From Candidatus Latescibacterota bacterium (GTDB taxonomy: Bacteria > Latescibacterota > UBA2968 > UBA8231): a stretch of DNA of 64,000 nucleotides. Made by a program: the position numbers and the translations under genes. This document shows, piece by piece, positions 6,669 to 55,970 of this stretch (position 1 is the stretch's first letter; each line of letters opens with the position of its first letter). The stretch spans positions 64,001-128,000 of the forward strand of contig OZ241889.1 of assembly GCA_965203355.1 (NCBI GenBank). Direction: 5' to 3'. The notes under the pieces were generated by a model, which was given only the letters and a program-made list of their open reading frames with translations, was not told the origin of the DNA and did no database searches.

Positions 6669-9221
6669 TCACCCCTGCGCCCAATGCACTAACCCCATTT
6701 CCAACGGGCTTGGCAGATCGGGATGCGAGGGCACCACGCGCAGCGTATAGCCGTGCGAGCCAGCCGCCGCGCACGTGAAGGTGCCGACAAAGTGGTAAGT
6801 GCCGTCGCCATTTTGCCCGGCCAATTCCAGCGGGTACACCTCGGTCTGCGCGAACTCGCGCTGGGCATTGAGGCGGCCGGCGTAAATCTCGACGCGGACA
6901 TCCTCTGGCGTTAGCTCGCCCAACGTCACCGTAGCGCGCAACGGCACCTGCGTCCCCACCTTGGGCTGCCGCGGAAATTCAGCATCCACCGCGCCGATTT
7001 GCACCTGCGCCCACTTGGAGCGCACGTGCGACTTCCAATGCGTCAGCCGCTGAACCCGCTCGCGGTCGTCCGCCAATTCCTCAAAGCGCGCTTGCCCCGG
7101 CAAGTAGAATCGCTCGACGTACTCGCGCACCATGCGGTGGGTATTATACTGCGGTGCAAGCTGGACAATGGTTTCCTTCATGCGGGCGATCCAATCGCCG
7201 GGCAATCCGTCCGCATCGCGCTGGTAGAACAGCGGGACCACCTCGGTCTCTAGCAAGTCGTAGAGCGAGTTGGACTCAACCTCGTCTTGGTACGCCTCGT
7301 CGTCGTAGTCCTCGCCACGGCCAATAGTCCAGCCAGCGTGCTCGTCGCAGGCTTCGTCCCACCAACCATCGAGTACGCTGACGTTGAGCACCCCATTGAC
7401 CGCCGCCTTCATGCCCGACGTGCCCGACGCCTCCAAGGGGCGGCGGGGGTTGTTGAGCCACACATCACACCCTTGCACCAAGTAGCGGGCGAGGTTCATG
7501 TCGTAATCGGACAAAAAGAAAATCCGGCCGTTAAAGGGGCCTTGCCGGGCGAGGTGGACGATTTGGCGGATCAACTCCTTACCAGCGTCGTCGTGGGGAT
7601 GCGCTTTGCCAGCGAAGAAAATCTGCACTGGACGCTGCTCGTCGGAGAACAGGGCCTTGAGCCGCTCGATATGGCGAAAGATCAGGTTGCCGCGCTTGTA
7701 CGTGGCAAAGCGACGGGCAAAGCCAATGGTCAGCACCTCCGGGTCGAGCCGCGCTAAGGTCTGTTCAATTTTGGCCTTAGACGCGCCCTGGCTCCGCATC
7801 TGCTGGCGCAAGTGATGGCAGGCGACGTCAATCAACCGCTTGCGCCGCTGCTGGTGCGTGTCCCACAGTTCGCGGTCGGGGATCTGATAGACCGGCTCCC
7901 ATTCCCGCTCGTCAGCCGATACAAAGCGCCAAGTGTCGCCGAGATAGCGGTCGAACAGCTCGGCCATTTCCAGCGAAACCCACGTGTGGAGATGGACGCC
8001 GTTGGTGACGTGGCCGATGGGGATTTCGCGCTCGGCGAAATCGGGCCATAGGCCCTGCCACATGCGACGACTGACGGTGCCGTGCAGGCGACTGACGCCA
8101 TTGGCCCGGCCCGAAAGCCGCAGCGCCAAGACCGTCATGCAGAAGTCGGCGTGCGAATCGCGGGGGTCAATCCGGCCTAGGCCGATAAATTCCTCGTGCG
8201 ATAGGCCGAGCCACTCGCGGAAATAGCCCAAGTGCTCCTCAACCAAGTGCGCGGGAAACCAGTCGTTGCCCGCCGCGACCGGCGTGTGCGTGGTGAATAC
8301 ATTGCCGACGACGCTGGCCTCGCGAGCCGCCGCAAACGAATAGCCGTGCTCGGTCATTAAACGGCGAATCCGCTCTAGGGCCAAAAAGGCCGAGTGTCCC
8401 TCGTTCATGTGGCAGACCGTGGGTTCGACGCCCACGGCTTGCAGGACGCGCAGACCGCCGATGCCGAGGAGAATCTCCTGCCGGATGCGCATGGCCGCGT
8501 CGCCGCCGTAGAGACGGGCGGTAATATCGCGGTCTGCCGGGGCGTTTTCGTCGAGGTTAGTATCGAGCAAATAGAGCTGCACCCGGCCCACCGGCACCTG
8601 CCAGATCCGCGCTTGCACCGGGCCGTGGGCAAAGGGAACCTCAATGGTGAGATGCCCGCCGTCGGGGTCGTGGACCGGCTGCACGGGCATTTGGTAGAAG
8701 TCGTTTTCCGGGTTTTGCTCTATCTGCCAGCCATCGGCGTTGAGGACTTGGCGGAAATAGCCCTCGCGGTAGAGCAAGCCGACCCCGACGAGGGGAACGC
8801 CTAGATCGCTGGCAGCTTTGAGATGGTCGCCAGCGAGCACGCCCAAGCCTCCAGAATAGATGCGCAGGCTCTCGGTCAGGCCGAACTCCGCCGAGAAGTA
8901 CGCCACCTGTAACCGGCTCTCGCCCGGCCTCTGGCCAAACCACGTCGGCTGGGACAAATAGCCTTCGAACTGCTCAACGGCGCGCTCGATGCGGCTTTGC
9001 AGTTGCTCGTCGATTAGGGCGTCGAGTTGGTCCGGCCGCAGGAGAGTCCAAAAGCGCAGGGGATCGCGCTGGCTCTCAACCCACGTTTCCGGGTCGATCT
9101 GGTAGAGGGTGCGGATGGTTTCCTTGCTCCAACTCCACCAGAGATTGTGTCCCAACTCCCACAGCGGCGTCAGTTGCTCGGGCAAGGACGGAATGATATT
9201 GAGGCGATATAGCGGTTTCAT
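6669..9221 (-). CDS. glgP: Alpha-glucan (glycogen) phosphorylase
   Basis: YSGGLGVLAGD, GFARRFATYKR, EASGTSGMKA PLP motif; start moved to ATG 9221. Confidence 0.95.
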   Translation of the reverse strand: MKPLYRLNIIPSLPEQLTPLWELGHNLWWSWSKETIRTLYQIDPETWVESQRDPLRFWTLLRPDQLDALIDEQLQSRIERAVEQFEGYLSQPTWFGQRPGESRLQVAYFSAEFGLTESLRIYSGGLGVLAGDHLKAASDLGVPLVGVGLLYREGYFRQVLNADGWQIEQNPENDFYQMPVQPVHDPDGGHLTIEVPFAHGPVQARIWQVPVGRVQLYLLDTNLDENAPADRDITARLYGGDAAMRIRQEILLGIGGLRVLQAVGVEPTVCHMNEGHSAFLALERIRRLMTEHGYSFAAAREASVVGNVFTTHTPVAAGNDWFPAHLVEEHLGYFREWLGLSHEEFIGLGRIDPRDSHADFCMTVLALRLSGRANGVSRLHGTVSRRMWQGLWPDFAEREIPIGHVTNGVHLHTWVSLEMAELFDRYLGDTWRFVSADEREWEPVYQIPDRELWDTHQQRRKRLIDVACHHLRQQMRSQGASKAKIEQTLARLDPEVLTIGFARRFATYKRGNLIFRHIERLKALFSDEQRPVQIFFAGKAHPHDDAGKELIRQIVHLARQGPFNGRIFFLSDYDMNLARYLVQGCDVWLNNPRRPLEASGTSGMKAAVNGVLNVSVLDGWWDEACDEHAGWTIGRGEDYDDEAYQDEVESNSLYDLLETEVVPLFYQRDADGLPGDWIARMKETIVQLAPQYNTHRMVREYVERFYLPGQARFEELADDRERVQRLTHWKSHVRSKWAQVQIGAVDAEFPRQPKVGTQVPLRATVTLGELTPEDVRVEIYAGRLNAQREFAQTEVYPLELAGQNGDGTYHFVGTFTCAAAGSHGYTLRVVPSHPDLPSPLEMGLVHWAQG

Positions 9222-9343
9222 TGTCAATTTCTTCTGTAATTGTAATTGAAGCGGCAGGACGCCTAAGACAGCAGCGTCGGCGCGTTTTGTCAAGGTCTGT
9301 CCACGCTCTATAACTTTAAGAAAATTGCGGCCACAACAAGCGT

Positions 9344-9442
9344 GGTCGGAAAGTTTTGCAATCTCCAATTGTCGGGGTTTAGGCGGAGCCGGGGCGATCC
9401 GTTTAATGGTAGTAAAGCTAAACTTCAAAACGTATCGCTACC
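9344..9442 (+). mobile_element. MITE/REP-like element, family A (internally deleted copy)
   Basis: Shares ttttgcaatctccaattgtc, aggcggagccggggcga and agtaaagctaaa..tcaaaacgta with the reverse complement of 55829-55970. Confidence 0.7.
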
Positions 9443-9447
9443 TACAC

Positions 9448-9477
9448 TTGACACGCCTTTACTGAAATTCATAAAAT
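9448..9477 (+). promoter_or_regulatory. Sigma70-like promoter
   Basis: TTGACA (9448-53), 18 nt, TAAAAT (9472-77); points toward the leader ORF and the 10026 gene. Confidence 0.55.
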
Positions 9478-9561
9478 ATGCGTTGCAATTCACGGCGGCG
9501 CGGCGCGTTTGGGTTATAGAACCTCCGCCGTTTGCGGCACTTTTAGTCGGATTAACAGGAC

Positions 9562-9708
9562 ATGGGCACAACGTCAATATCACAAAGAACGCCATCGCCG
9601 GGCGCGGTGCCTTGTTCTATGCTTGCGACAACGCCGAGTCTTAATTTACGCAAGTCGTTAAAAAACAATGATTTACCCCCCCCCCCCCCGAATTTTCTTG
9701 GGCATTAA
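9562..9708 (+). other. Putative leader ORF (48 aa, ..KSLKNNDLPPPPPNFLGH*) crossing a poly-C tract
   Basis: ATG 9562 to TAA 9708; weak SD; alternative frame after the tract is open to 10013. Confidence 0.4.
9676..9689 (+). repeat. C14 homopolymer (candidate contingency locus)
   Basis: atttaCCCCCCCCCCCCCCgaa; longest homopolymer seen in the window. Confidence 0.9.
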
Positions 9709-9801
9709 GCCCTAGCTTCACTCGCCAACCTATTCGCCTCGCTCCCCTTCCTAAGCAAAAGCGGGAAGAGGCATTGCTCTGCCCGGCCGCGTCGGTAAGC
9801 C

Positions 9802-9834
9802 CCACTGGCCACTGGCCACCGGCCACCGGCCACC
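9802..9834 (-). repeat. Heptamer tandem repeat (CCAC[T/C]GG) x4.7
   Basis: ccactgg ccactgg ccaccgg ccaccgg ccacc; reverse complement of the 3215 unit. Confidence 0.8.
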
Positions 9835-10025
9835 CATCCACATCACAAACGAAAACCATCCTCGGTAGCTTCGCGGTTATCGGCGGGCGACGTCGTAGTC
9901 CTAGCTCTCGCCGCGAGGCATTCGTCTTTTTTAACGTTCACAAAAACGCAAGAACGCAACGGCTTAGTGATAAGGCTAAGTCCATTTTCTTCTGTCACTT
10001 TTCCCTTTTCTAAAGGAGTGAGATC

Positions 10026-13000
10026 ATGAGTACGCACACGCGGCTTTTTACCTTTCCTTGTTTGCTGATTGCCAGTTTGCTGTTGGCTGTGGAAGCCCCG
10101 GCTCAGACCGAGAATATCGACATATCCGTTGATCGGCGTTCGGTCCGCGAGGATGGGGGAGCGCAAGATATTGCGATAACAGCCGAATTACGCGACACTG
10201 ACGCGAAGGCAAAGGTCGATCTTTATCTTCCGCTGAGTCTCGTCGGTGTCACGTCCCGCTATCTCAACGATTTATTCACCATATCCTTCCCCTCTTTGGT
10301 GATTAAGAAGGACGAGCGCAAGGCCACCGGGACTATCACCATAACCCCGAAAGACAATGCTTGGATCGGCCCTATCGCACGCTCGGCGACCGCTCCAACG
10401 AATGTTGGTTTCCTGACCATAACGGGCACGGTCGATACATCGGCGGTTCTAAAGCGGGTTAATATTCCTATCGTGATTGATATAGGGGGTTCTACTGGCA
10501 ACATCGCCTTAAAAGGCCAAACCACCCCGGCCTATACTGAGACTGGTAGTGTTACTGGCGTCTTCTATATTGAGATTGTTGACGACGAGCAGTTGCCCCA
10601 AAACATCAACCTCTCTTTTTCGCCGTCCAAGCTCGGCAAGGAGGCGGGTCCGACTCCGATTAAAGTGACGGCGACGTTGGATGGCGGCGCGTTGACGCGC
10701 CACGACCTTGAAACCCAGTTGGTTGTTGTTGAGGGCAAGGGGGCTACCAGCGATACGTTGGCGCGCGACTCGAATTTCTCGATTAGCGGGCTGGGAAAGC
10801 TGACCATTCCGAAGGGGCAGACCGAAGCGACGATGACGATCACCGTCGATCCGAGTAATAAGGCGGGCAAGATCGTGCTGGGGGCCAGTGCCAGGGGTGA
10901 TACGACGCTGATAGTGAAGTCAAAACGGTTCAACAGCGCGGGTAAGCAGGTCCGACTCGACTTCCATTTTGATGATTCCTTCGACTCCGATGGTTATATA
11001 AACGACGTATCCGGAAGCTATAATTTCGGCGAAAAGTTTGGGGATGGTGCCGCGCGGAGGCTCGTCGGAATAGACTACAACGGCGATGGGGATGTTGGAA
11101 CAAACAACGATGGGGATGCGTTTGTTGGGTATACTCTTAGCGGCGGGCGTGAGCTCTTAAAAGATTCCGACTTCCTACCTACGGGGACCGTCTTGGTAGA
11201 AAAAGACTTGGGGCTCGACTTATACGGGGATGGCGATTTGTTGGATACCTATGTGGTACCCGCCGATACCGTATTAACGGAACGCGGTTCCCGCTTGTTC
11301 CCTAAAACGGACACGGAGCGTAGATACAGGTGGGGTCCACGAGCAAGCGATAGAGGACCTCGACTCCCTCTCCAGGCCGACTTTAACGGCAATGGCATCA
11401 TCGGTGATGGCAGTAGTACCGGTACTGGTTGGGTCATGAATTATGTGGAACATTTTCCCATTCGCATTAAGGTCAGGGCGGGCGTCATCACGGTCGAGGA
11501 CGTCGCCGTCGCGCAGATCAAGAATTTTACGCTGAGTCCAGCGACGATCCGCGAGGCCGCCGGAGCGACGGACGTTGCGATGACGGTTGAATTGGAGAAA
11601 GCCTTGACCGGCGCGAAGGCGGTGGACTTTCAGATTACGGCCGGTTCTTCCGGGACGCGCGATGTGAATTACGAAGTGGAAGTGATTGAAGGCTTGACGA
11701 TCCCGGCCGGCAACACCAAAGGCACGGCGACGTTGCGCGTCACGCCGGTGGACAACAGCGGTGTGAATAATCCGTGGACGTTCACGGTGCAAGCGAAAGT
11801 CGGCGATGACACATCTCAGATGAAGGATGCGCCGTTCGAGATCACGGACGATGAGACGCTGAGCGATGACATTACGCTGTCGGTCAGCCCGAGCGAAATC
11901 AAAGAGGACGCCGGGGCGACGACCGTTACGGTGACCGGCACGTTGGACGGCAAGGTGCTCGACGCGAATGCGACGATCACGCTGGTCGTGGATCGTACGC
12001 CGGACAAGTCGGCGACGCGGGACGTGGATTACACGGCAGCGCTTAGCTCGCTGACGATTCCGGCGGGCGCGATCACCGGCTCGACGACGATCACGATCAC
12101 GCCCGTCAACGACGGGACCGGCGACAACGACGAGACGATCACGATCAAGCAGCTCACGGACAACCTCAAGAACCAAGACGACGACAAGATCACGGTCAGC
12201 ACCGCGAAGATCACGCTGAAAGACGCGGCGAAGATGGATGATTCTTCCGAGACGACCACGACCACGACCACGGCCACGGGAGGGCCGAGTTTCGGTGCGG
12301 CCGCATTAGCCTTTGAAGCGACGGTAGGTCAGGCGTTCAGCGAGGTGTTGCCCGCCGCGACGGGCGGCCAAGGAACGCTGCGGTACCGGGTCTCGTCGAG
12401 CCTGCCGATGGGGCTGTCGTTTGACGCGGCCACGCGGACGCTTTCCGGGACGCCGACGCTGGCGGGCATGTCCTCGGTCGTCTATATGGCGTTCGATGAC
12501 GCCGACAATGGCCGGGCAAAAACCATCACCATCACCGTCAGCGAAGCCGCGCCGGTCACCGTGGGCGTCGCCAGCGTGATGGCTTCGCAATCGGCGGTGC
12601 GCGAGAACGGCGACACGGCTGAAATCCGAGTTACGGCGACCTTGTCGGGCGCGGCTCCAGCGACCGAGACGGTCCGCTTCACGATTGTGCCGCCGGCCAG
12701 CGGCGCGATGGCCACCCGCGACGTGGATTATACGGCGGCGTTGGCCGGGACGATCACCATTGCGGCCGGCGAGACGATGGGTTGGACGAGGCTTTTCCTG
12801 TCGCCGATTGACAACGCTTCGGCGGACGGGCACAAGTTCTTGGGTATTCGGGCGGCGGCTTCGGGCGGCTGGGGGCAAGTGGACTTGCGGATTTCCGACG
12901 ATGAAACGCCAAGCACGTCTCTGGTGCTGTCGGTGACGCCGAGCGCGCTCAGCGAGTCAGCGGAATTGACGGAAGTAATGGTCATGGCCGCACTGGACGG

Positions 13001-14840: not shown

Positions 14841-14937
14841 TCGGTCGTAGTACGTTTTCGGGCGGGCTTGGGTCGCCGGGGTTCAGGCGGAGCCGGGGCG
14901 ACCCGTTCGCTAAATTTCAAAACGTACCACTATCGAA
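14841..14937 (+). mobile_element. MITE/REP-like element, family A (deleted copy)
   Basis: tcggtcgtagtacgtttt ... ttcaaaacgtaccactatcgaa imperfect TIRs; gggtcgcc..ggcgaccc inner hairpin. Confidence 0.75.
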
Positions 14938-28097: not shown

Positions 28098-28109
28098 AAG
28101 GTGATACGT

Positions 28110-31100
28110 ATGACTAATCCCCGCGCCACTTTCCAAACGCTTTTGCGCGAGTTGTTTCAGTTTGACTGCGCCGATTTGGACTTTGGCATATACCGCATTG
28201 TGAATCGCAAGCGGGAGGTCATTGAGCGGTTCATAACCGATGATTTGCCGAAAGCGGTAGCCGTGCAACTCGACAGCGGCGCGTTGGCCGATCAGGCGCA
28301 GGCCGAGCGAGCGTTGCAGGAAGTTCGTCAGCGGATTGGGGAGACCTTGGGGGACGCCATTGATGCCGACGGCAATCTGGCAGAGATGTATCACAACACG
28401 CCGCTTGGTAGAGATTACTTAGAGTTGAAGGCGAAATCCGTTGGCGGTCAAGGCCGCGATGCTCTCGAGGCGGCCATTTTCAATCACCTGTACGCTTTCT
28501 TTAGCCGCTACTACCAAGACGGCGATTTCATTTCCAAGCGTCGGTATTCCAAACGCCAACGCTACGCCATTCCGTACAACGGCGAAGAAGTGCATCTCCA
28601 TTGGGCCAATAGCGATCAATACTACATTAAGACCGGCGAGCATTTTTGCGATTATTCGTTTGCCGTGCGCGGCGTCACCGTGCATTTCAAACTTCAGATT
28701 GCCGATGTCGAGCAGGACAACGTAAAGGGCGACAGGCGGTTTTTTCTGCCGTGTATTGAGACGATTGCTTGGGACGAGAAGGCCAAGCGACTTGACATTC
28801 CGTTTGAGTATCGGCCGCTGACTGGATCGGACGACTACGGCAAGAAGAATCAGCAGGAGGCCATCATCGCGAAAGCTGTGGCGGAAATTCCCAAGCAGTT
28901 GGCTAGGGCTACTGACGCGCTGGCGGCTTTGACGGGTGAAAAACGCCGGAACGACGATGCGCAGGCTGTCTCTTTCCTCGAACACCACTTGCGCCAATAT
29001 ACTCGGCGCAACACGTCCGATTTCTTCATTCACAAAGATCTGAAGGGCTTTCTCGTCCGCGAACTCGATTTCTACCTGAAGAATGAGGTGCTGAATCTCG
29101 GCGACATGGAAGTGGCAGGAGAAGATCGCGCTGAGGGCTGGTTTCAGATGATGCGGACGATCCGTTCGGTCGGCGACCAAATCATCGACTTTCTGGACCA
29201 GATCGAAGGCTTCCAGAAAATGTTGTGGGAGAAGCGAAAGTTCGTCACCGAGACGCACTACTGCATTGCGGTTGCACACATTGCCGAGAACTTCTATGCG
29301 GACATCGCCGGATGCGAGGCGCAGTGGGACGAGTGGAAAGCACTGTTCAGCATTGACGAAGATCAAATCGACCTGTTCAACGCGGGCAAGGACAAGACAG
29401 GCAAGCGCGTCGAGTTCTTAAAGGCGCGTCCGACGCTCGTCCTCGATAGCAAACACTTTGACGGCGATTTTGTGGATCGGCTGTTGGGTAGCTTTGACGA
29501 TTTGGACGGGATGACGGATGGAGTTTTGATACACGGCGAGAATTTTCATGCTCTCCACTTTCTGTCGGAAGAATACAAAGGAAAACTACAGTGTGTGCAT
29601 ATTGATCCCCCGTATAATACTCAGTCATCACATGGCTTTCTCTACAAAAATGAATACCAACATTCGAGTTGGCTCGCAATGATGCAAAACCGTATTGCGG
29701 CTACTGTTCCCTTGCTGCGTCAAGAAGGTTCTTTTTTATGTCATATTGATGAGAATGAATATGAGGTTTTGTACTTGCTGTTTGCGAATACAGGCATACC
29801 AGATGGCGGCACTATCGTTTGGGATAAGAAGAATCCCATGCTTGGACGCAAAGGCATTGCTACCCAACATGAGTACGTCTTGTGGCGAGCATGGAGCGAG
29901 TCGTCGGTGTACTTACGTCCTGCTAATGTCCGCATGATGATCGACAAAGCGGAATCACTAATTCGAGAGTACGGATATGTCAATGAACAGGTCCGGCGTG
30001 ATTTCAGTAATTGGGTCAATAGTTGCGAAGGTTTGACCGGTGGAGAGCGAGCGTATCGACTGATTGATGACAATGGTCGGGTTTATCGTGGCGTAGCGAT
30101 GACATGGCCTAACCCTAAGCAGCCACCAGACAAGTTTTTTATTCCCCTTATTCATCCTGTTACCAAAAAGCCATGCCCTGTTCCAAGTAGAGGATGGTCT
30201 CGTACACCTGAAAAAATGCAAGAACTATTGGACCGAGACGAAATCATCTTCGGCAAAGACGAGACCGTACAGCCAACACGAAAGATATTTCTAAAACCTG
30301 ATTCCGGTCGGCAACTATCGTCGGTGCTTAGCGATGCTAGCAGAGGTAAAAACGACTTAGAAAAACTGGGCTTTGAGTTTTCCTACTGCCATCCGGTTTC
30401 GCTCTATGTGGAACTGTTGGGGGCCGCTGCGGCAGAAAGTGGAGATACAGTTCTCGACTACTTCGCCGGCTCTGGCACCACCGGCCACGCCGTCATCAAC
30501 CTCAACCGAGAAGACGGCGGCCAACGAAAATTCATCCTCGTCGAGATGGGCGATCACTTCGACACCGTTCTACTCCCGCGCATTAAAAAAGTCGCATTCA
30601 CGCCCGAATGGAAAGACGGCAAACCCAAGCGCATGGCAACGCCTCAAGAAGCCGAGCGAGGGCCGCGCATCGTCAAGTACATGCACCTTGAAAGTTATGA
30701 GGATGCTCTGAACAACATCGACTTCGACGAAGCGGCCGCACAAAAAGCGTTGCAATTCGACGACTACCTGCTCAAGTACATGCTCCAATGGGAAACCAAG
30801 CGCAGCGCGACCCTGCTGAACGTAGAAAAGCTATCGCAACCCTTCCGCTACACGCTACATATCCACGCCGACGGCCAAACGCGGCAGCAAATCGCCGACA
30901 TCCCAGAAACCTTCAATTACTTACTCGGCCTGCGCGTCGAGACGCGGCGCGTATATTACGACGACGACCGACGATACTTGGTCTATCGCGGCCAAACGGA
31001 CCAGCAACAAATCGTCGTCATCTGGCGAGAAACCCAAGGCTGGGACAAAGCCGCTCTAGTGCGCGACAAAGAGTTCGTAGCCGAGCAGCAATTAACCGAC

Positions 31101-31205
31101 AGCGCGGACGAAGTCTATGTCAACGGCGATTCATTCATCCGCGAAGCCAAAGCACTAGAACCAACGTTCAAGCGGCGAATGTTCGCGGAGACGAGGACAC
31201 AATGA
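28110..31205 (+). CDS. mod: Type III R-M methyltransferase (Mod), long form
   Basis: DLDFGIYRI N-terminus, HIDPPYNT, DYFAGSGTT, LESYEDALNN. Confidence 0.9.
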   Translation: MTNPRATFQTLLRELFQFDCADLDFGIYRIVNRKREVIERFITDDLPKAVAVQLDSGALADQAQAERALQEVRQRIGETLGDAIDADGNLAEMYHNTPLGRDYLELKAKSVGGQGRDALEAAIFNHLYAFFSRYYQDGDFISKRRYSKRQRYAIPYNGEEVHLHWANSDQYYIKTGEHFCDYSFAVRGVTVHFKLQIADVEQDNVKGDRRFFLPCIETIAWDEKAKRLDIPFEYRPLTGSDDYGKKNQQEAIIAKAVAEIPKQLARATDALAALTGEKRRNDDAQAVSFLEHHLRQYTRRNTSDFFIHKDLKGFLVRELDFYLKNEVLNLGDMEVAGEDRAEGWFQMMRTIRSVGDQIIDFLDQIEGFQKMLWEKRKFVTETHYCIAVAHIAENFYADIAGCEAQWDEWKALFSIDEDQIDLFNAGKDKTGKRVEFLKARPTLVLDSKHFDGDFVDRLLGSFDDLDGMTDGVLIHGENFHALHFLSEEYKGKLQCVHIDPPYNTQSSHGFLYKNEYQHSSWLAMMQNRIAATVPLLRQEGSFLCHIDENEYEVLYLLFANTGIPDGGTIVWDKKNPMLGRKGIATQHEYVLWRAWSESSVYLRPANVRMMIDKAESLIREYGYVNEQVRRDFSNWVNSCEGLTGGERAYRLIDDNGRVYRGVAMTWPNPKQPPDKFFIPLIHPVTKKPCPVPSRGWSRTPEKMQELLDRDEIIFGKDETVQPTRKIFLKPDSGRQLSSVLSDASRGKNDLEKLGFEFSYCHPVSLYVELLGAAAAESGDTVLDYFAGSGTTGHAVINLNREDGGQRKFILVEMGDHFDTVLLPRIKKVAFTPEWKDGKPKRMATPQEAERGPRIVKYMHLESYEDALNNIDFDEAAAQKALQFDDYLLKYMLQWETKRSATLLNVEKLSQPFRYTLHIHADGQTRQQIADIPETFNYLLGLRVETRRVYYDDDRRYLVYRGQTDQQQIVVIWRETQGWDKAALVRDKEFVAEQQLTDSADEVYVNGDSFIREAKALEPTFKRRMFAETRTQ

Positions 31206-32420: not shown

Positions 32421-32748
32421 CCGAGTAAGTTTGGTGGACATGCTCATCTACGCGGAGGAAGCTGTCGTTCTGTCCAGTGCGACAAGTCTGAATGACTTGA
32501 TAGAAGACCGGATGATGCAACTCGCCCTACAGAAATTGATAGAGATTGTGGGCGAAGCGGCTAACCGCGTTTCCGAGGAGACACAGCAGTGCTACCAAGA
32601 AGTTCCCTGGCCCCAGATCATCGGCCTGCGTAACCGGCTAGTTCACGGCTACGATGACGTCAATCTCGACATTCTGTGGAAAATCATTCAGAACGACTTG
32701 CCGCCGCTCATTGAACAACTGCGAGCCATCGTTGGCGAAGAGTCCTAA
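32404..32748 (+). CDS. DUF86/HepT-like HEPN RNase toxin
   Basis: EIVGEAA and RNRLVHGY (Rx4HxY). Confidence 0.9.
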   Translation: MSKRDDRVSLVDMLIYAEEAVVLSSATSLNDLIEDRMMQLALQKLIEIVGEAANRVSEETQQCYQEVPWPQIIGLRNRLVHGYDDVNLDILWKIIQNDLPPLIEQLRAIVGEES

Positions 32749-32749
32749 A

Positions 32750-35700
32750 ATGCCGTCCGTACAAATCACCAATTTGGAGCAACATCTAGTCCTACTAGCG
32801 TGGCTCAATCGTCAGTTCGGCTACGAACACAACCGCGATCTATTAGCGGACCTAAAAAAAGCCGACGAAGGGTTCGACGCTGAAGGCCGCAGCTTTGTCT
32901 ATCACCTGCTGATAAGTCGCGGGGGCGCGGTGAGCATTTCGCCGGACGCCTTAGCCCAGTACGACGACAATATCCGCAACCACCTGCACGCCATAAACGC
33001 CCGCCGTTCCGAGCCGATTACCTTGCGCTACTTCCAGTACTTGGCGGTGCTCTACGCAGAAGTGTTCCTCGATGGATACTTCAATCGCCGAGGCGAAATG
33101 CTCTGCTCGCTTAATGATTTTGTCGCTGAGTGCGATGCCGGCGAACCGTTTTCCAAATCCGACCTTAAAAAACTCGCCTTTTGGATGGCGACCGGCAGCG
33201 GCAAAACCCTCATCATGCACCTCAACTACCGCCAATTCCTGCACTACAACAATCAGCCCCTCGACAACGTGCTGCTGATTACCCCCAACGAGGGACTGAG
33301 CGGGCAGCATCTCGAAGAAATGACCGCTTCGGATATACCCTGTCGGCGCTTCGACCTCGCCGAGAGCGGCCTGATGATGGACGCAAATGACGTGGTCCGG
33401 GTCATTGAAATAACCAAACTGGTTGAGCAAAAACGCGGCGGCGGTGTGAGCGTACCCGTCGAGGCATTCGAGGGCAACAACCTGATTTTCGTCGATGAAG
33501 GGCACAAAGGGTCCGGCGGCGAAGCGTGGCGCAGCTTCCGCGACGCGCTAGGCGAGCGCGGCTTTACCTTTGAATACAGCGCCACGTTCGGCCAAGCCCT
33601 GAGTGCGGCGAGTACGGACAAGCTCACAGTGGAGTATGGGAAAGCCATCGTCTTCGACTACTCGTACCGCTATTTCCACGGCGACGGGTACGGCAAGGAC
33701 TTCCGCGTCCTCAATCTCTTGGCAGAGACGACCGAGGAAACGACCGAGACGCTTTTGCTCGGCAACCTACTGTCGTTCTACGAGCAGCAATGCGCGTTCG
33801 CCGAGTATGCCCAAGCCTTGCGCCCCTATCACTTGGAACGGCCGCTATGGGTCTTTGTGGGCAGCAGAGTGAACGCGGTGTATTCCAAGAAATCCAAGAA
33901 ACGCAGCGACGTGCTGACGGTGGCGCGGTTCCTACATCGCGTTCTGGAGAACAAGCATGGCTGGGTACTGTCGGCCATTGAGCGACTCGTCAAAGGCGAG
34001 AGCGGCTTGATCGCGCCAGATGATCAGGACGTGTTCGCCGGGAAATTCGCGTACCTGCGGGCCATGGAGCAACCGGCCGATGCGATGTACCAAGACATCC
34101 TAAAAAAGGTGTTCCACGCCCCGGCTGGCGGCGGCTTGCACTTGTGTGCGATCCGCGGAGCCAATGGCGAATTAGGTCTCAAGGCGAGCAGTGCCCAATC
34201 CTACTTCGGTCTCATCTACATCGGCGACATCAGTGCCTTCAAAAATCTAGTGGAGTCCGACGACGCCGGTCTAACGCTGGAAGAGGATGCACTGGCTAGC
34301 TCCCTGTTCGATGACATCAATGGGCCTCACACCAAAATCGAGGTGCTCATTGGCGCGAAGAAGTTCATGGAAGGCTGGAACTCTTGGCGCGTCTCGAACA
34401 TGGGCCTGCTGAACATCGGCCACAGAGAAGGCTCGGAAATCATCCAGCTTTTCGGGCGCGGAGTGCGCTTGCGAGGGAAAGGCACCAGCCTCAAACGGAG
34501 CGCGGCACTGGATGGCAACCACCCGGCTCACATTGGCCTGCTGGAGACGCTCAACATCTTTGCGGTGCGTGCCAACTACATGGCGCAGTTCCGCAAGTAC
34601 TTAGAGCGAGAGGGCGTGGAGACCGAAGCATACCGAGAACTGCCGCTGTTCATTCGTCCCAACGAGCACTGGCTGCAAAAGGGATTGGTCATACCGAGAG
34701 TGCCGGACGAGCGCGACTTTGCCTCGGAAGAAGATATTCGCTTGCAGATCGATCCGAACGTGACGGTGCGCGTTGATAGGTCCTTGCGGGTCCACGCCTT
34801 AGAAAGCAACCCTACTGGCCTTGCCGGAGTTGGAGCCCACTTGGGTACAGAGCAGGCCATCCCCCAACAAGCCTATTCCCTAATCGATTGGGAGCAGGTG
34901 TATCTCGACCTACTTGAATACAAGGAGCAGAAAGGCCGCGACAACTTGATCGTGCAGCCGGATGTACTGCAGCAGATTATCGCGGACCGCGATCGCTACC
35001 GTCTAATGGCCGAAGTGTCGGTCGTCCAGCCACAGTCGATTGAGGATGTGGGCCGCCTACAAGAGGCTGTAACCTGTATTTTGCGGAAGTACGTGGACGC
35101 TTTCTATCGGGTGCGGCGGGAGCGTTGGGAGCAAAAGCAGATGATCTATAAACCCCTCGACGCGCGGGATCCGAATTTGAGCTTCAGCCGAGAGCCGGAA
35201 GCCAAGGGTCAATACGTGGTCAGCATCCGGCAGTCCGAGCGCCCATTAATCAGCGAAGTTGAAAAGCTGATCGCTGACGGCGAGCAACTATACGCAGGAG
35301 AAACAGAGGAACTGCCCCGCTTTCACTTTGATCGACATCTCTATCAGCCTCTATTGGTTGAAAAGGGCGACAACGTAAAGAGCGCACCTCCGGCGTTGAA
35401 CCAGAGCGAGCAGCAGTTCGTCAAGGATGTGAAAGCCTATTGGACCGCCGAATGCGACCAATCCCTCGCCGGCGTAGAAGTGTTCCTCCTGCGGAATCTA
35501 AGTCGTGGAGCGGGCATTGGCTTCTTTGAGACGAGCGGCTTCTATCCCGATTTCATCCTCTGGATCAAAAAAGGGAAAAAACAACACATTGTCTTTGTGG
35601 AGCCGCACGGAATGATCCACGCAAAAGCATACCAGCACGACGACAAAGCGCGGCTTCACAAAAGGCTGCCGAAATTGGCGCAGGCGCTCGGCGCGCGGAG

Positions 35701-35932
35701 TCCGCAGCACAACGTGACGCTGGATTCGTACATCGTTTCCGCAACGTCCTACCGCGACCTTCACAAGCAATACGACGACGGCACTTGGGATAAGGAGCAG
35801 TTCACCGCCGCGCACATTCTGTTCGCCGAGCGCAACGAACAGTACGACTACATGAAAAATATCTTTACAGATAGCCTAGCCAACTTCTGCAACAGGAGAC
35901 CAAACAATGAACAAAGGTCGGGTCGCCGGTAA
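32750..35932 (+). CDS. res: Type III R-M restriction subunit (Res), SF2 helicase-like plus nuclease
   Basis: MATGSGKT, DEGH, YSATF, QLFGRGVR, FYPDFILW..VEPHG. Confidence 0.85.
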   Translation: MPSVQITNLEQHLVLLAWLNRQFGYEHNRDLLADLKKADEGFDAEGRSFVYHLLISRGGAVSISPDALAQYDDNIRNHLHAINARRSEPITLRYFQYLAVLYAEVFLDGYFNRRGEMLCSLNDFVAECDAGEPFSKSDLKKLAFWMATGSGKTLIMHLNYRQFLHYNNQPLDNVLLITPNEGLSGQHLEEMTASDIPCRRFDLAESGLMMDANDVVRVIEITKLVEQKRGGGVSVPVEAFEGNNLIFVDEGHKGSGGEAWRSFRDALGERGFTFEYSATFGQALSAASTDKLTVEYGKAIVFDYSYRYFHGDGYGKDFRVLNLLAETTEETTETLLLGNLLSFYEQQCAFAEYAQALRPYHLERPLWVFVGSRVNAVYSKKSKKRSDVLTVARFLHRVLENKHGWVLSAIERLVKGESGLIAPDDQDVFAGKFAYLRAMEQPADAMYQDILKKVFHAPAGGGLHLCAIRGANGELGLKASSAQSYFGLIYIGDISAFKNLVESDDAGLTLEEDALASSLFDDINGPHTKIEVLIGAKKFMEGWNSWRVSNMGLLNIGHREGSEIIQLFGRGVRLRGKGTSLKRSAALDGNHPAHIGLLETLNIFAVRANYMAQFRKYLEREGVETEAYRELPLFIRPNEHWLQKGLVIPRVPDERDFASEEDIRLQIDPNVTVRVDRSLRVHALESNPTGLAGVGAHLGTEQAIPQQAYSLIDWEQVYLDLLEYKEQKGRDNLIVQPDVLQQIIADRDRYRLMAEVSVVQPQSIEDVGRLQEAVTCILRKYVDAFYRVRRERWEQKQMIYKPLDARDPNLSFSREPEAKGQYVVSIRQSERPLISEVEKLIADGEQLYAGETEELPRFHFDRHLYQPLLVEKGDNVKSAPPALNQSEQQFVKDVKAYWTAECDQSLAGVEVFLLRNLSRGAGIGFFETSGFYPDFILWIKKGKKQHIVFVEPHGMIHAKAYQHDDKARLHKRLPKLAQALGARSPQHNVTLDSYIVSATSYRDLHKQYDDGTWDKEQFTAAHILFAERNEQYDYMKNIFTDSLANFCNRRPNNEQRSGRR

Positions 35933-55402: not shown

Positions 55403-55759
55403 TCAGATCAGGAAGGAACAGTAGAGTTGGAAAAGTGGAGGATGCGGTTGGGAAATGGGGGGGGGCAGCGGTCGCAGCGCAGCCGAGCGAGGCCGTGGCA
55501 GAGCGGCCGCAGCCATGCCGACCAACGGCGTTGAGACGGATGCCTGCTCGGCCAGCGCGATAAACCGAGGAGACGCGCTGTTGGATTCGGTCCGCAGACA
55601 GCAACAACCGGCTTGCAGGCTCTCGCCGCCGCAAGCATGGGCGACGTGGCAGGGCATGGGCGCGGCCGCTGCGACCGGAGCGCAGAAAACCTGCAAGCCG
55701 CTACAGGCAAAAGCCAGCAGCAGGACTAAAGACGCGGTTGTGAGGCGAAATTTTTTCAT
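55403..55759 (-). CDS. Putative metal-sensing leader protein (CutF/CruR-like architecture)
   Basis: Signal peptide, PCHVAHAC..GCCC, Pro-rich C-terminus RPLPPPISQPHPPLFQLYCSFLI; directly upstream of cusC. Confidence 0.65.
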   Translation of the reverse strand: MKKFRLTTASLVLLLAFACSGLQVFCAPVAAAAPMPCHVAHACGGESLQAGCCCLRTESNSASPRFIALAEQASVSTPLVGMAAAALPRPRSAALRPLPPPISQPHPPLFQLYCSFLI

Positions 55760-55828: not shown

Positions 55829-55970
55829 TTCGATAGTGGTACGTTTTGAAATTTAGCTTTACTCCCGTTGAACGGGTCGCCCCGGCTCCGCCTGAACCCC
55901 GGCGACCCAAGCCCGACCGAAAACGAAAACGCACCGCGACAATTGGAGATTGCAAAATGTACCACGACCC
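55829..55970 (-). mobile_element. MITE/REP-like element, family A (longest copy)
   Basis: Imperfect TIRs gtggtacgttttgaaat / attgcaaaatgtaccac with internal hairpin. Confidence 0.75.

Follow-up and report, generated by a model that had tools for sequence, protein, structure and literature searches.

Most of the contingency loci described so far come from host-adapted pathogens. Among those relying on a homopolymer, the poly-C of Bordetella fim, the poly-G of Treponema pallidum tpr and the poly-A of Mycoplasma hyorhinis vlp are promoter switches, in which the tract is part of the core promoter or adjoins it and each member of the family is expressed stochastically and independently. We analyse here a run of 14 cytosines (C14) located in the leader of a gene for a giant adhesin-like surface protein, in a 64-kb stretch of contig OZ241889.1 from a Candidatus Latescibacterota bacterium (hereafter the window, in whose numbering all positions are given). 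Unlike the tracts of fim, tpr and vlp, this one is separated by about 200 nt from the only promoter-like site, which lies upstream of it, and the closest described systems act within the leader. In Streptococcus gallolyticus pil1, changes in a GCAGA repeat lengthen a leader peptide and the ribosomes then disrupt a terminator (Danne et al. 2014, PMC3894217); this leader has 22 GCAGA pentamers, a recognisable ribosome-binding site (RBS) and a strong terminator of -18.7 kcal/mol, and belongs to a single operon of a Gram-positive pathogen. In hmw1A and hmw2A of Haemophilus influenzae, a 7-nt simple-sequence repeat (SSR) in the 5' untranslated region (UTR) folds into a long hairpin, G-rich in one arm, which is cut by RNase III, and expression is graded by the repeat number (PMC12721329). 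In Clostridioides difficile flgB, an invertible segment is flipped by RecV and the OFF state corresponds to Rho-dependent termination within the leader (PMC7446863). Both hmw and flgB are examples of switching that takes place once transcription has been initiated.

The C14 homopolymer occupies positions 9676-9689 of the forward strand, 336 nt upstream of the start codon of the giant gene. It is the sole run reaching 10 nt among the 10 homopolymer runs of at least 7 nt in the window. According to a simple base-frequency model, C or G runs of 14 nt or more are expected 0.0047 times per window and 0.31 times per 4.17 Mb, and the tract itself is beyond chance expectation. Homopolymers of G or C become slip-prone from a length of about 8, and with 14 nt the tract is well within the size range of SSR contingency loci. 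It can be regarded as a credible contingency-locus candidate. The most serious competing view is that of a neutral or hitch-hiking homopolymer, a mutational hot spot tolerated in a non-coding leader and copied with it by duplication or gene conversion, the assembled length of which may be off by a base. The figure of about 0.31 such runs expected per 4.17 Mb from base composition is in line with this view; the general instability of long G/C runs, which usually persist only under selection, argues against it, as do the uniqueness of a run of this size (10 nt or more) in 64 kb and its position ahead of a member of a surface-protein family.

The tract is followed by a long open frame that ends on the Shine-Dalgarno (SD) sequence of the giant gene (Table 1). 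Starting from ATG 9562, frame arithmetic indicates that C15 or C12 gives access to this frame of 107 codons and that C13 or C16 leads to a stop at 9715. From a second possible start at ATG 9668, the open frame is reached at C13 or C16 and not at C15 or C12. The frame, which is also that of the giant open reading frame (ORF), is blocked just before the tract by a TGA (9669-9671), and its TAA at 10011-10013 overlaps the AAGGAG motif by one base, with ATG 10026 coming next.

We tentatively favour, as a possible though far from assured reading, a contingency repeat whose length would decide how far ribosomes travel along the leader and thus the expression of the giant gene; a neutral tract is nearly as likely. 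C14 would then be a slippage-prone SSR in a leader of about 540 nt putatively transcribed from 9448-9477, some 200 nt from its beginning, and would constitute a per-gene stochastic switch acting after transcription start, through the reading frame of leader translation. With C14 or C13 (from AUG 9562), ribosomes would halt 19-26 nt beyond the tract, exposing about 300 nt of weakly structured, C-rich RNA to Rho or RNases and leaving the downstream SD unaided. With C15 or C12 (or with C13 or C16 from AUG 9668), they would travel 107 codons to the TAA abutting AAGGAG, shielding the leader on the way, and would be passed on to ATG 10026, and the expression of the giant gene would be altered by both polarity and hand-over.

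Table 1. Features of the leader and of the giant gene (positions in the window)
Feature	Position	Strand	Details
Sigma-70-like promoter candidate, TTGACA-18-TAAAAT	9448-9477	+	11/12 consensus matches
Leader ORF, 48 codons	9562-9708	+	starts at ATG 9562; tract read as five prolines; stops 19 nt past the tract
C-rich, G-poor stretch, rut-like	9640-9880	+	GC skew -0.17 to -0.56
Second possible mini-ORF, 15 codons	9668-9715	+	ATG 5 nt before the tract; reads MIYPPPPR...
Open frame after the tract, 107 codons	9690-10013	+	ends at TAA 10011-10013; frame of the giant ORF
7-nt array, consensus CCACCGG, 4.7 copies	9802-9834	+	small GC hairpin, -16.8 kcal/mol, z -2.0
T6 run	9927-9932	+	noted in the sequence-only reading
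Weak terminator-like hairpin	9961-9995	+	8 pairs (3 G-C), then a U-rich tail; about 20 nt ahead of the SD
SD of the giant gene, AAGGAG	10013-10018	+	7 nt before ATG 10026
Adhesin-like surface protein, 1440 amino acids	10026-14348	+	signal peptide; Calx-beta/He_PIG Ig-like repeats; C-terminal FlgD_ig / Por_Secre_tail

A sequence-only reading of this region had previously proposed a phase-variable leader ORF ending on the SD of the giant gene. All the sequence features on which it relied were recovered at the positions that it gave, namely the C14 tract, the TTGACA-18-TAAAAT promoter candidate with its 11 matches out of 12, the ORF 9562-9708, the alternative stop at 9715, the 107-codon frame running to a TAA on the SD, the hairpins (which proved weak), the T6 run and the heptamer array. 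Its description of the present allele as OFF has no support, since the assembled tract length may be one base off and since the frame opens at C13 or C16 when read from ATG 9668.

Set against pil1, the locus shares an SSR placed inside a leader ORF upstream of the gene of a surface structure, the target itself never being frameshifted, and a frame that stops early, an out-of-frame change leading to a longer peptide and to a ribosome arriving just before the target. As in a leader of the pil1 type, the +1/-2 frame leads on from the tract, crosses the hairpin and terminates at TAA 10011-10013. Unlike that system, the repeat is here a homopolymer, no usable SD is present, the hairpin is weak and not conserved (-9.7 kcal/mol), the long frame is a 107-codon run ending at the SD, and the target belongs to a 15-gene family. 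The leader ORF with a recognisable RBS and start that characterises pil1 is represented by ATG 9562, the RBS being absent. The leader may work like that of pil1 and was not classed as a member of this type, in view of the missing RBS and the weak hairpin; the leader-ORF mechanism is coherent and has a precedent in pil1, but as a hypothesis it is so far unsupported. The resemblance to hmw would consist in a large adhesin gene whose transcribed leader contains a repeat operating once transcription has started, and a 7-nt array is also found here; unlike in hmw, none of the folds pairs the C run, and the heptamer array is limited to 4.7 copies. The likeness to flgB lies in a candidate phase-variable element within a long leader, and the difference in the nature of this element, an SSR instead of invertible DNA, no recombinase or flanking inverted repeats having been seen here.

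Several observations weigh against translation of the leader and against the significance of its open frame. ATG 9562 has no usable SD, the only SD-like motif being an AGGA placed 1 nt from the ATG, in keeping with the reservation about a weak SD expressed in the sequence-only reading, and ATG 9668 has no SD at all. Both candidate AUGs are engaged in predicted helices, an A/U-rich 8-bp hairpin in the case of ATG 9668, in folds that are no better than those of shuffled sequences. The missing SD weighs little, as a well-spaced SD precedes only 10 of the 24 ORF starts in the window and SD-less initiation is thus probably common here. The codon-usage score per codon is -0.45 for the leader ORF and -0.15 for the open frame, to be compared with +0.31 (standard deviation 0.15) for 123 in-frame gene windows, 3% of which score below -0.15. 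The G + C content by codon position is flat in the open frame (0.53/0.56/0.55 vs 0.66/0.45/0.74 in genes). The two forward leader frames found no homologue among 5.8 billion clusters. A stretch of 98 codons is also open on the opposite strand, and this minus-strand frame of 98 amino acids retrieved only two matches from 1.84 billion representatives, both through the translated heptamer repeat.

Sequence variation among copies of the leader leads in the same direction. It was evaluated from the assembled contigs of four public runs aligned to positions 9000-10600 (30, 183, 63 and 36 contigs). The 18 substitutions listed from these contigs in 9690-10010 are divided 7/5/6 between codon positions 1/2/3 by hand count, with no third-position excess. 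Among variant contigs, one extra nucleotide occurs at 9659 and one is missing at 9899, which implies that the frames are not preserved base-for-base among copies; the deletion leads into another frame, which likewise meets no stop until a TGA next to the start codon. The 107-codon frame is itself only mildly beyond chance: when 9690-10010 was shuffled 5000 times with its dinucleotides preserved, this frame was open in 4.5% of the cases and any forward frame, of the three, in 13.7%, i.e. a coincidence of 1 in 7 to 1 in 22. Since each of the three frames meets a stop no further than about 20 nt from ATG 10026, any open frame would end on the RBS and this ending adds nothing as evidence. A neutral tract, for which the open frame would be coincidental, agrees with this 4.5-13.7% probability, with the absence of coding signal and of homologues for the three leader-frame queries, and with the poor SD and AUG contexts.

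Proline stalling offers another interpretation of the same frames, raised as an alternative in view of the reading of the tract as PPPPP from ATG 9562 and PPPP from ATG 9668. Leader ORFs with proline codons are known in the mgt leaders of Salmonella. Here, the five proline codons would stall ribosomes, depending on EF-P or Pro-tRNA, and would set the leader structure or termination regardless of any change in tract length. The poor initiation contexts, the lack of an outstanding architecture of alternative hairpins and the instability of a homopolymer as the coding basis of a sensor make this explanation highly improbable.

The composition of the leader raises the possibility that the tract acts without any translation. 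Rho prefers C-rich unstructured RNA, and the composition of the stretch 9640-9880, resembling that of a Rho-loading (rut) region, is as would be expected of such a site. The part of the leader that follows the tract is strongly enriched in C over G and is not unusually folded, which is as expected of an RNA needing ribosome cover. C14 is unpaired in all folds, with no G-rich pairing partner in them. Tract length could then act as a switch or a dial by modifying the fate of the mRNA (through Rho loading on the poly-C, RNase access or UTR structure) or the spacing of an unrecognised activator-dependent promoter around the tract. The unpaired state of the tract at the opening of a region richer in C than in G suits this view, as does the fact that translation of the leader ORF receives no sequence support from codon usage, SD or AUG folds, and there are precedents for a 5' UTR SSR acting by RNA processing (the 7-nt repeat of H. 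influenzae hmw, PMC12721329) and for Rho terminating the transcript of a phase-variable leader (C. difficile, PMC7446863). A change of 1 nt in a 14-nt single-stranded run should nonetheless barely alter the binding of Rho or RNases, so a sharp switch is hard to obtain in this way; the lack of a G-rich partner in the folds and the lack of a -35/-10 pair around the tract, with the only promoter-like site 200 nt upstream, also speak against this view. We judge this explanation rather unlikely in itself, but not far behind the favoured one.

Candidates for a defined RNA element did not withstand the analysis. A strong intrinsic attenuator was rejected, the hairpin preceding the SD (9961-9982) being weak (-9.7 kcal/mol, z -1.04), a result that also counts against the leader-translation mechanism modelled on pil1. 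A structured RNA element was unsupported, the whole leader not being unusually folded (z -0.42), and no Rfam match was obtained within positions 9000-10400 at E values up to 1. The absence of an Rfam family and of folding beyond that of shuffles is in keeping with a neutral tract. Besides these elements, a perfect 10-nt inverted repeat (9656-9665 / 9927-9936) pairs an A6 located before the tract with the T6 run and encloses 261 nt; by our estimate, it is about chance level in 1.2 kb.

As regards transcription, the box at 9448-9477 is the only promoter-like site in 9200-10300 (mean of 0.8 and standard deviation of 0.7 in shuffles), and it coincides with the left edge of a leader module common to other loci. 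It would provide the start of the leader transcript. A homopolymer switch in a promoter spacer was rejected, as no pair of hexamers flanks the tract. The intergenic region is about 800 nt long, with a G + C content of 51% compared with 60% in the window. The alpha-glucan phosphorylase ORF on the other side (6669-9428, minus strand) is listed from TTG 9428; model coverage suggests ATG 9221 as its true start, which widens the intergenic region to the size just mentioned.

The first 400 residues of the giant protein, used as a query, retrieved 43 proteins, including 14 encoded on one contig of 4,171,184 bp and 40-74% identical over that part. The five window proteins that were looked up exactly, among them the giant protein, all map to a contig of 4,171,184 bp as well, which means that the genome of the window has at least 15 paralogues, of 1413-1943 amino acids. 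Names are attached to two of the five look-up clusters, and their named members with 90% identity or more bear the label Gemmatimonadota, the probable phylum on this evidence. Their first ~50 and last ~90 residues are nearly invariant and their middle part is variable. The Calx-beta repeats are weak, with only sub-threshold Calx-beta leads in ESM Atlas; Por_Secre_tail reaches 25.9 bits (cut-off 27) and the overlapping FlgD_ig 44 bits (cut-off 27), and a precomputed PF18962 assignment exists for 10 of the 14 paralogues, so far as a putative status as sorted cargo of the T9SS type is concerned. These data support the identification of the target as an adhesin-like surface protein, from a family of the kind usually placed under contingency loci, and the family context raises the odds of the tract being a switch.

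The leader is a module shared by copies of the family, with the tract shared at least once. In the assembled contigs, exact copies of the window sequence occur in two of the runs (X1 and X5), and leader copies join other outside sequences at 9447, 9495-9516, 9652, 9689 and 9975. The junction at 9447 is illustrated by a contig of 2734 nt from run X4, which matches 9447-9587 with 1 mismatch and 2 gaps and is unrelated before 9447. In one X5 contig, the match extends as far as the last C of the tract (9689) and is then lost, others beginning to match at 9652, which indicates that at least one diverged copy retains the 24-nt left flank together with the C run; this retention amid different surroundings argues against a neutral scenario. 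An X1 contig presents a related heptamer array abutting 9975, which replaces the left arm of the hairpin 9961-9982 and is unfavourable to a role of this hairpin in leader translation. The left flank and C run kept in one X5 contig support the sequence-only reading, and the replaced left arm of the hairpin in the X1 contig does not; its assignment of the target as a surface protein was upheld, the protein being one of 15 paralogues whose 5' and 3' ends are conserved. Among the 32 run pieces listed, none spans the tract (one ends at 9687 and two begin at 9694), so that they have no bearing on length variation, and the 12 indels listed for the four runs include none in the tract. The summed contig depth is higher over parts of the leader and is not usable as a copy number. 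A skip of 144 nt (9706 to 9851) in one X2 contig was discarded, its 29-nt side being too weak.

Searches in wider collections added little on this point. A pattern made of the tract and its flanks had no match in genome, metagenome or viral contigs, and a protein scan of genome contigs returned 23 pattern matches and no relatives. The metagenome family alignment comprises 18 loci, only two of which (L001 and L002) extend beyond the C-terminal ~140 residues, both being cut at the 5' side; none of the 18 has a C/G run of at least 8 nt or leader similarity, the homologous leader regions not being covered. A broader proposal, in which all 15 giant genes would have their own poly-C in the shared leader and tract length would set ribosome travel, Rho polarity and hand-over to the SD in each of them, seems improbable to us.

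Mosaicism among the copies calls to mind a different function, that of a recombination hot spot in which the G14 of the other strand would form a non-B structure and promote gene conversion among the 15 paralogues. The guanine quadruplex (G4) of Neisseria pilE is a precedent for such a promotion of recombination. The family has conserved 5' and 3' ends and mosaic leader copies, and in the segment 14290-14707 the last ~30 codons of the giant gene and its strong terminator hairpin form a tandem repeat of 2.8 copies (period 152, 87% matches), which looks like a scar of recombination among the conserved 3' ends of the paralogues. A plain homopolymer is, for its part, not a canonical four-run G4 motif and no silent cassettes were seen, and we give this function scarcely any credence.

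Should the tract be a family-wide homopolymer switch, it would extend stochastic surface variation to free-living bacteria of an environmental phylum, perhaps under phage or grazer pressure, with combinatorial and stochastic surface coats in a free-living bacterium, and would represent the first family of contingency loci described for Gemmatimonadota. If it operated through leader translation and polarity, and not through a frameshift of the target or a new promoter spacing, S. gallolyticus pil1 would be the only earlier example of this logic, and the present locus the first to use a homopolymer for it. In the full-text literature, no paper was found linking type IX secretion with phase variation or homopolymers, nor Gemmatimonadota with SSR phase variation. 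From the standpoint of annotation, 15 genes sharing promoter, leader and signal peptide make assemblies and expression estimates of this family error-prone.

The neighbours of the giant gene are housekeeping genes, serS, folD and the alpha-glucan phosphorylase (most likely starting at 9221), along with peptidases. Further away, a DNA methylase (N6_N4_Mtase) and a ResIII/SNF2 helicase-type protein, encoded at 28101-31205 and 32654-35932, could form a type III-like restriction-modification pair, in which no long repeat was seen. The second-longest G/C run of the window is a G9 on the forward strand (C9 on the minus strand) at 55457-55465; it is found inside a small putative minus-strand ORF starting at ATG 55757, which would encode a Cys/His-rich product with a signal-peptide-like N-terminus and stands upstream of a CzcCBA-like metal efflux operon. 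Three copies of an intergenic repeat are present (9354-9440 and 14877-14932 on the forward strand, 55834-55957 on the minus strand), each measuring about 60-120 nt and built around a GC-rich hairpin, the first having no Rfam match and the two others being 88% and 74% identical to it. Each copy lies upstream of the next gene and in the same orientation, ahead of the promoter box of the giant gene, of ORF 14954 and of the small ORF 55757, respectively.

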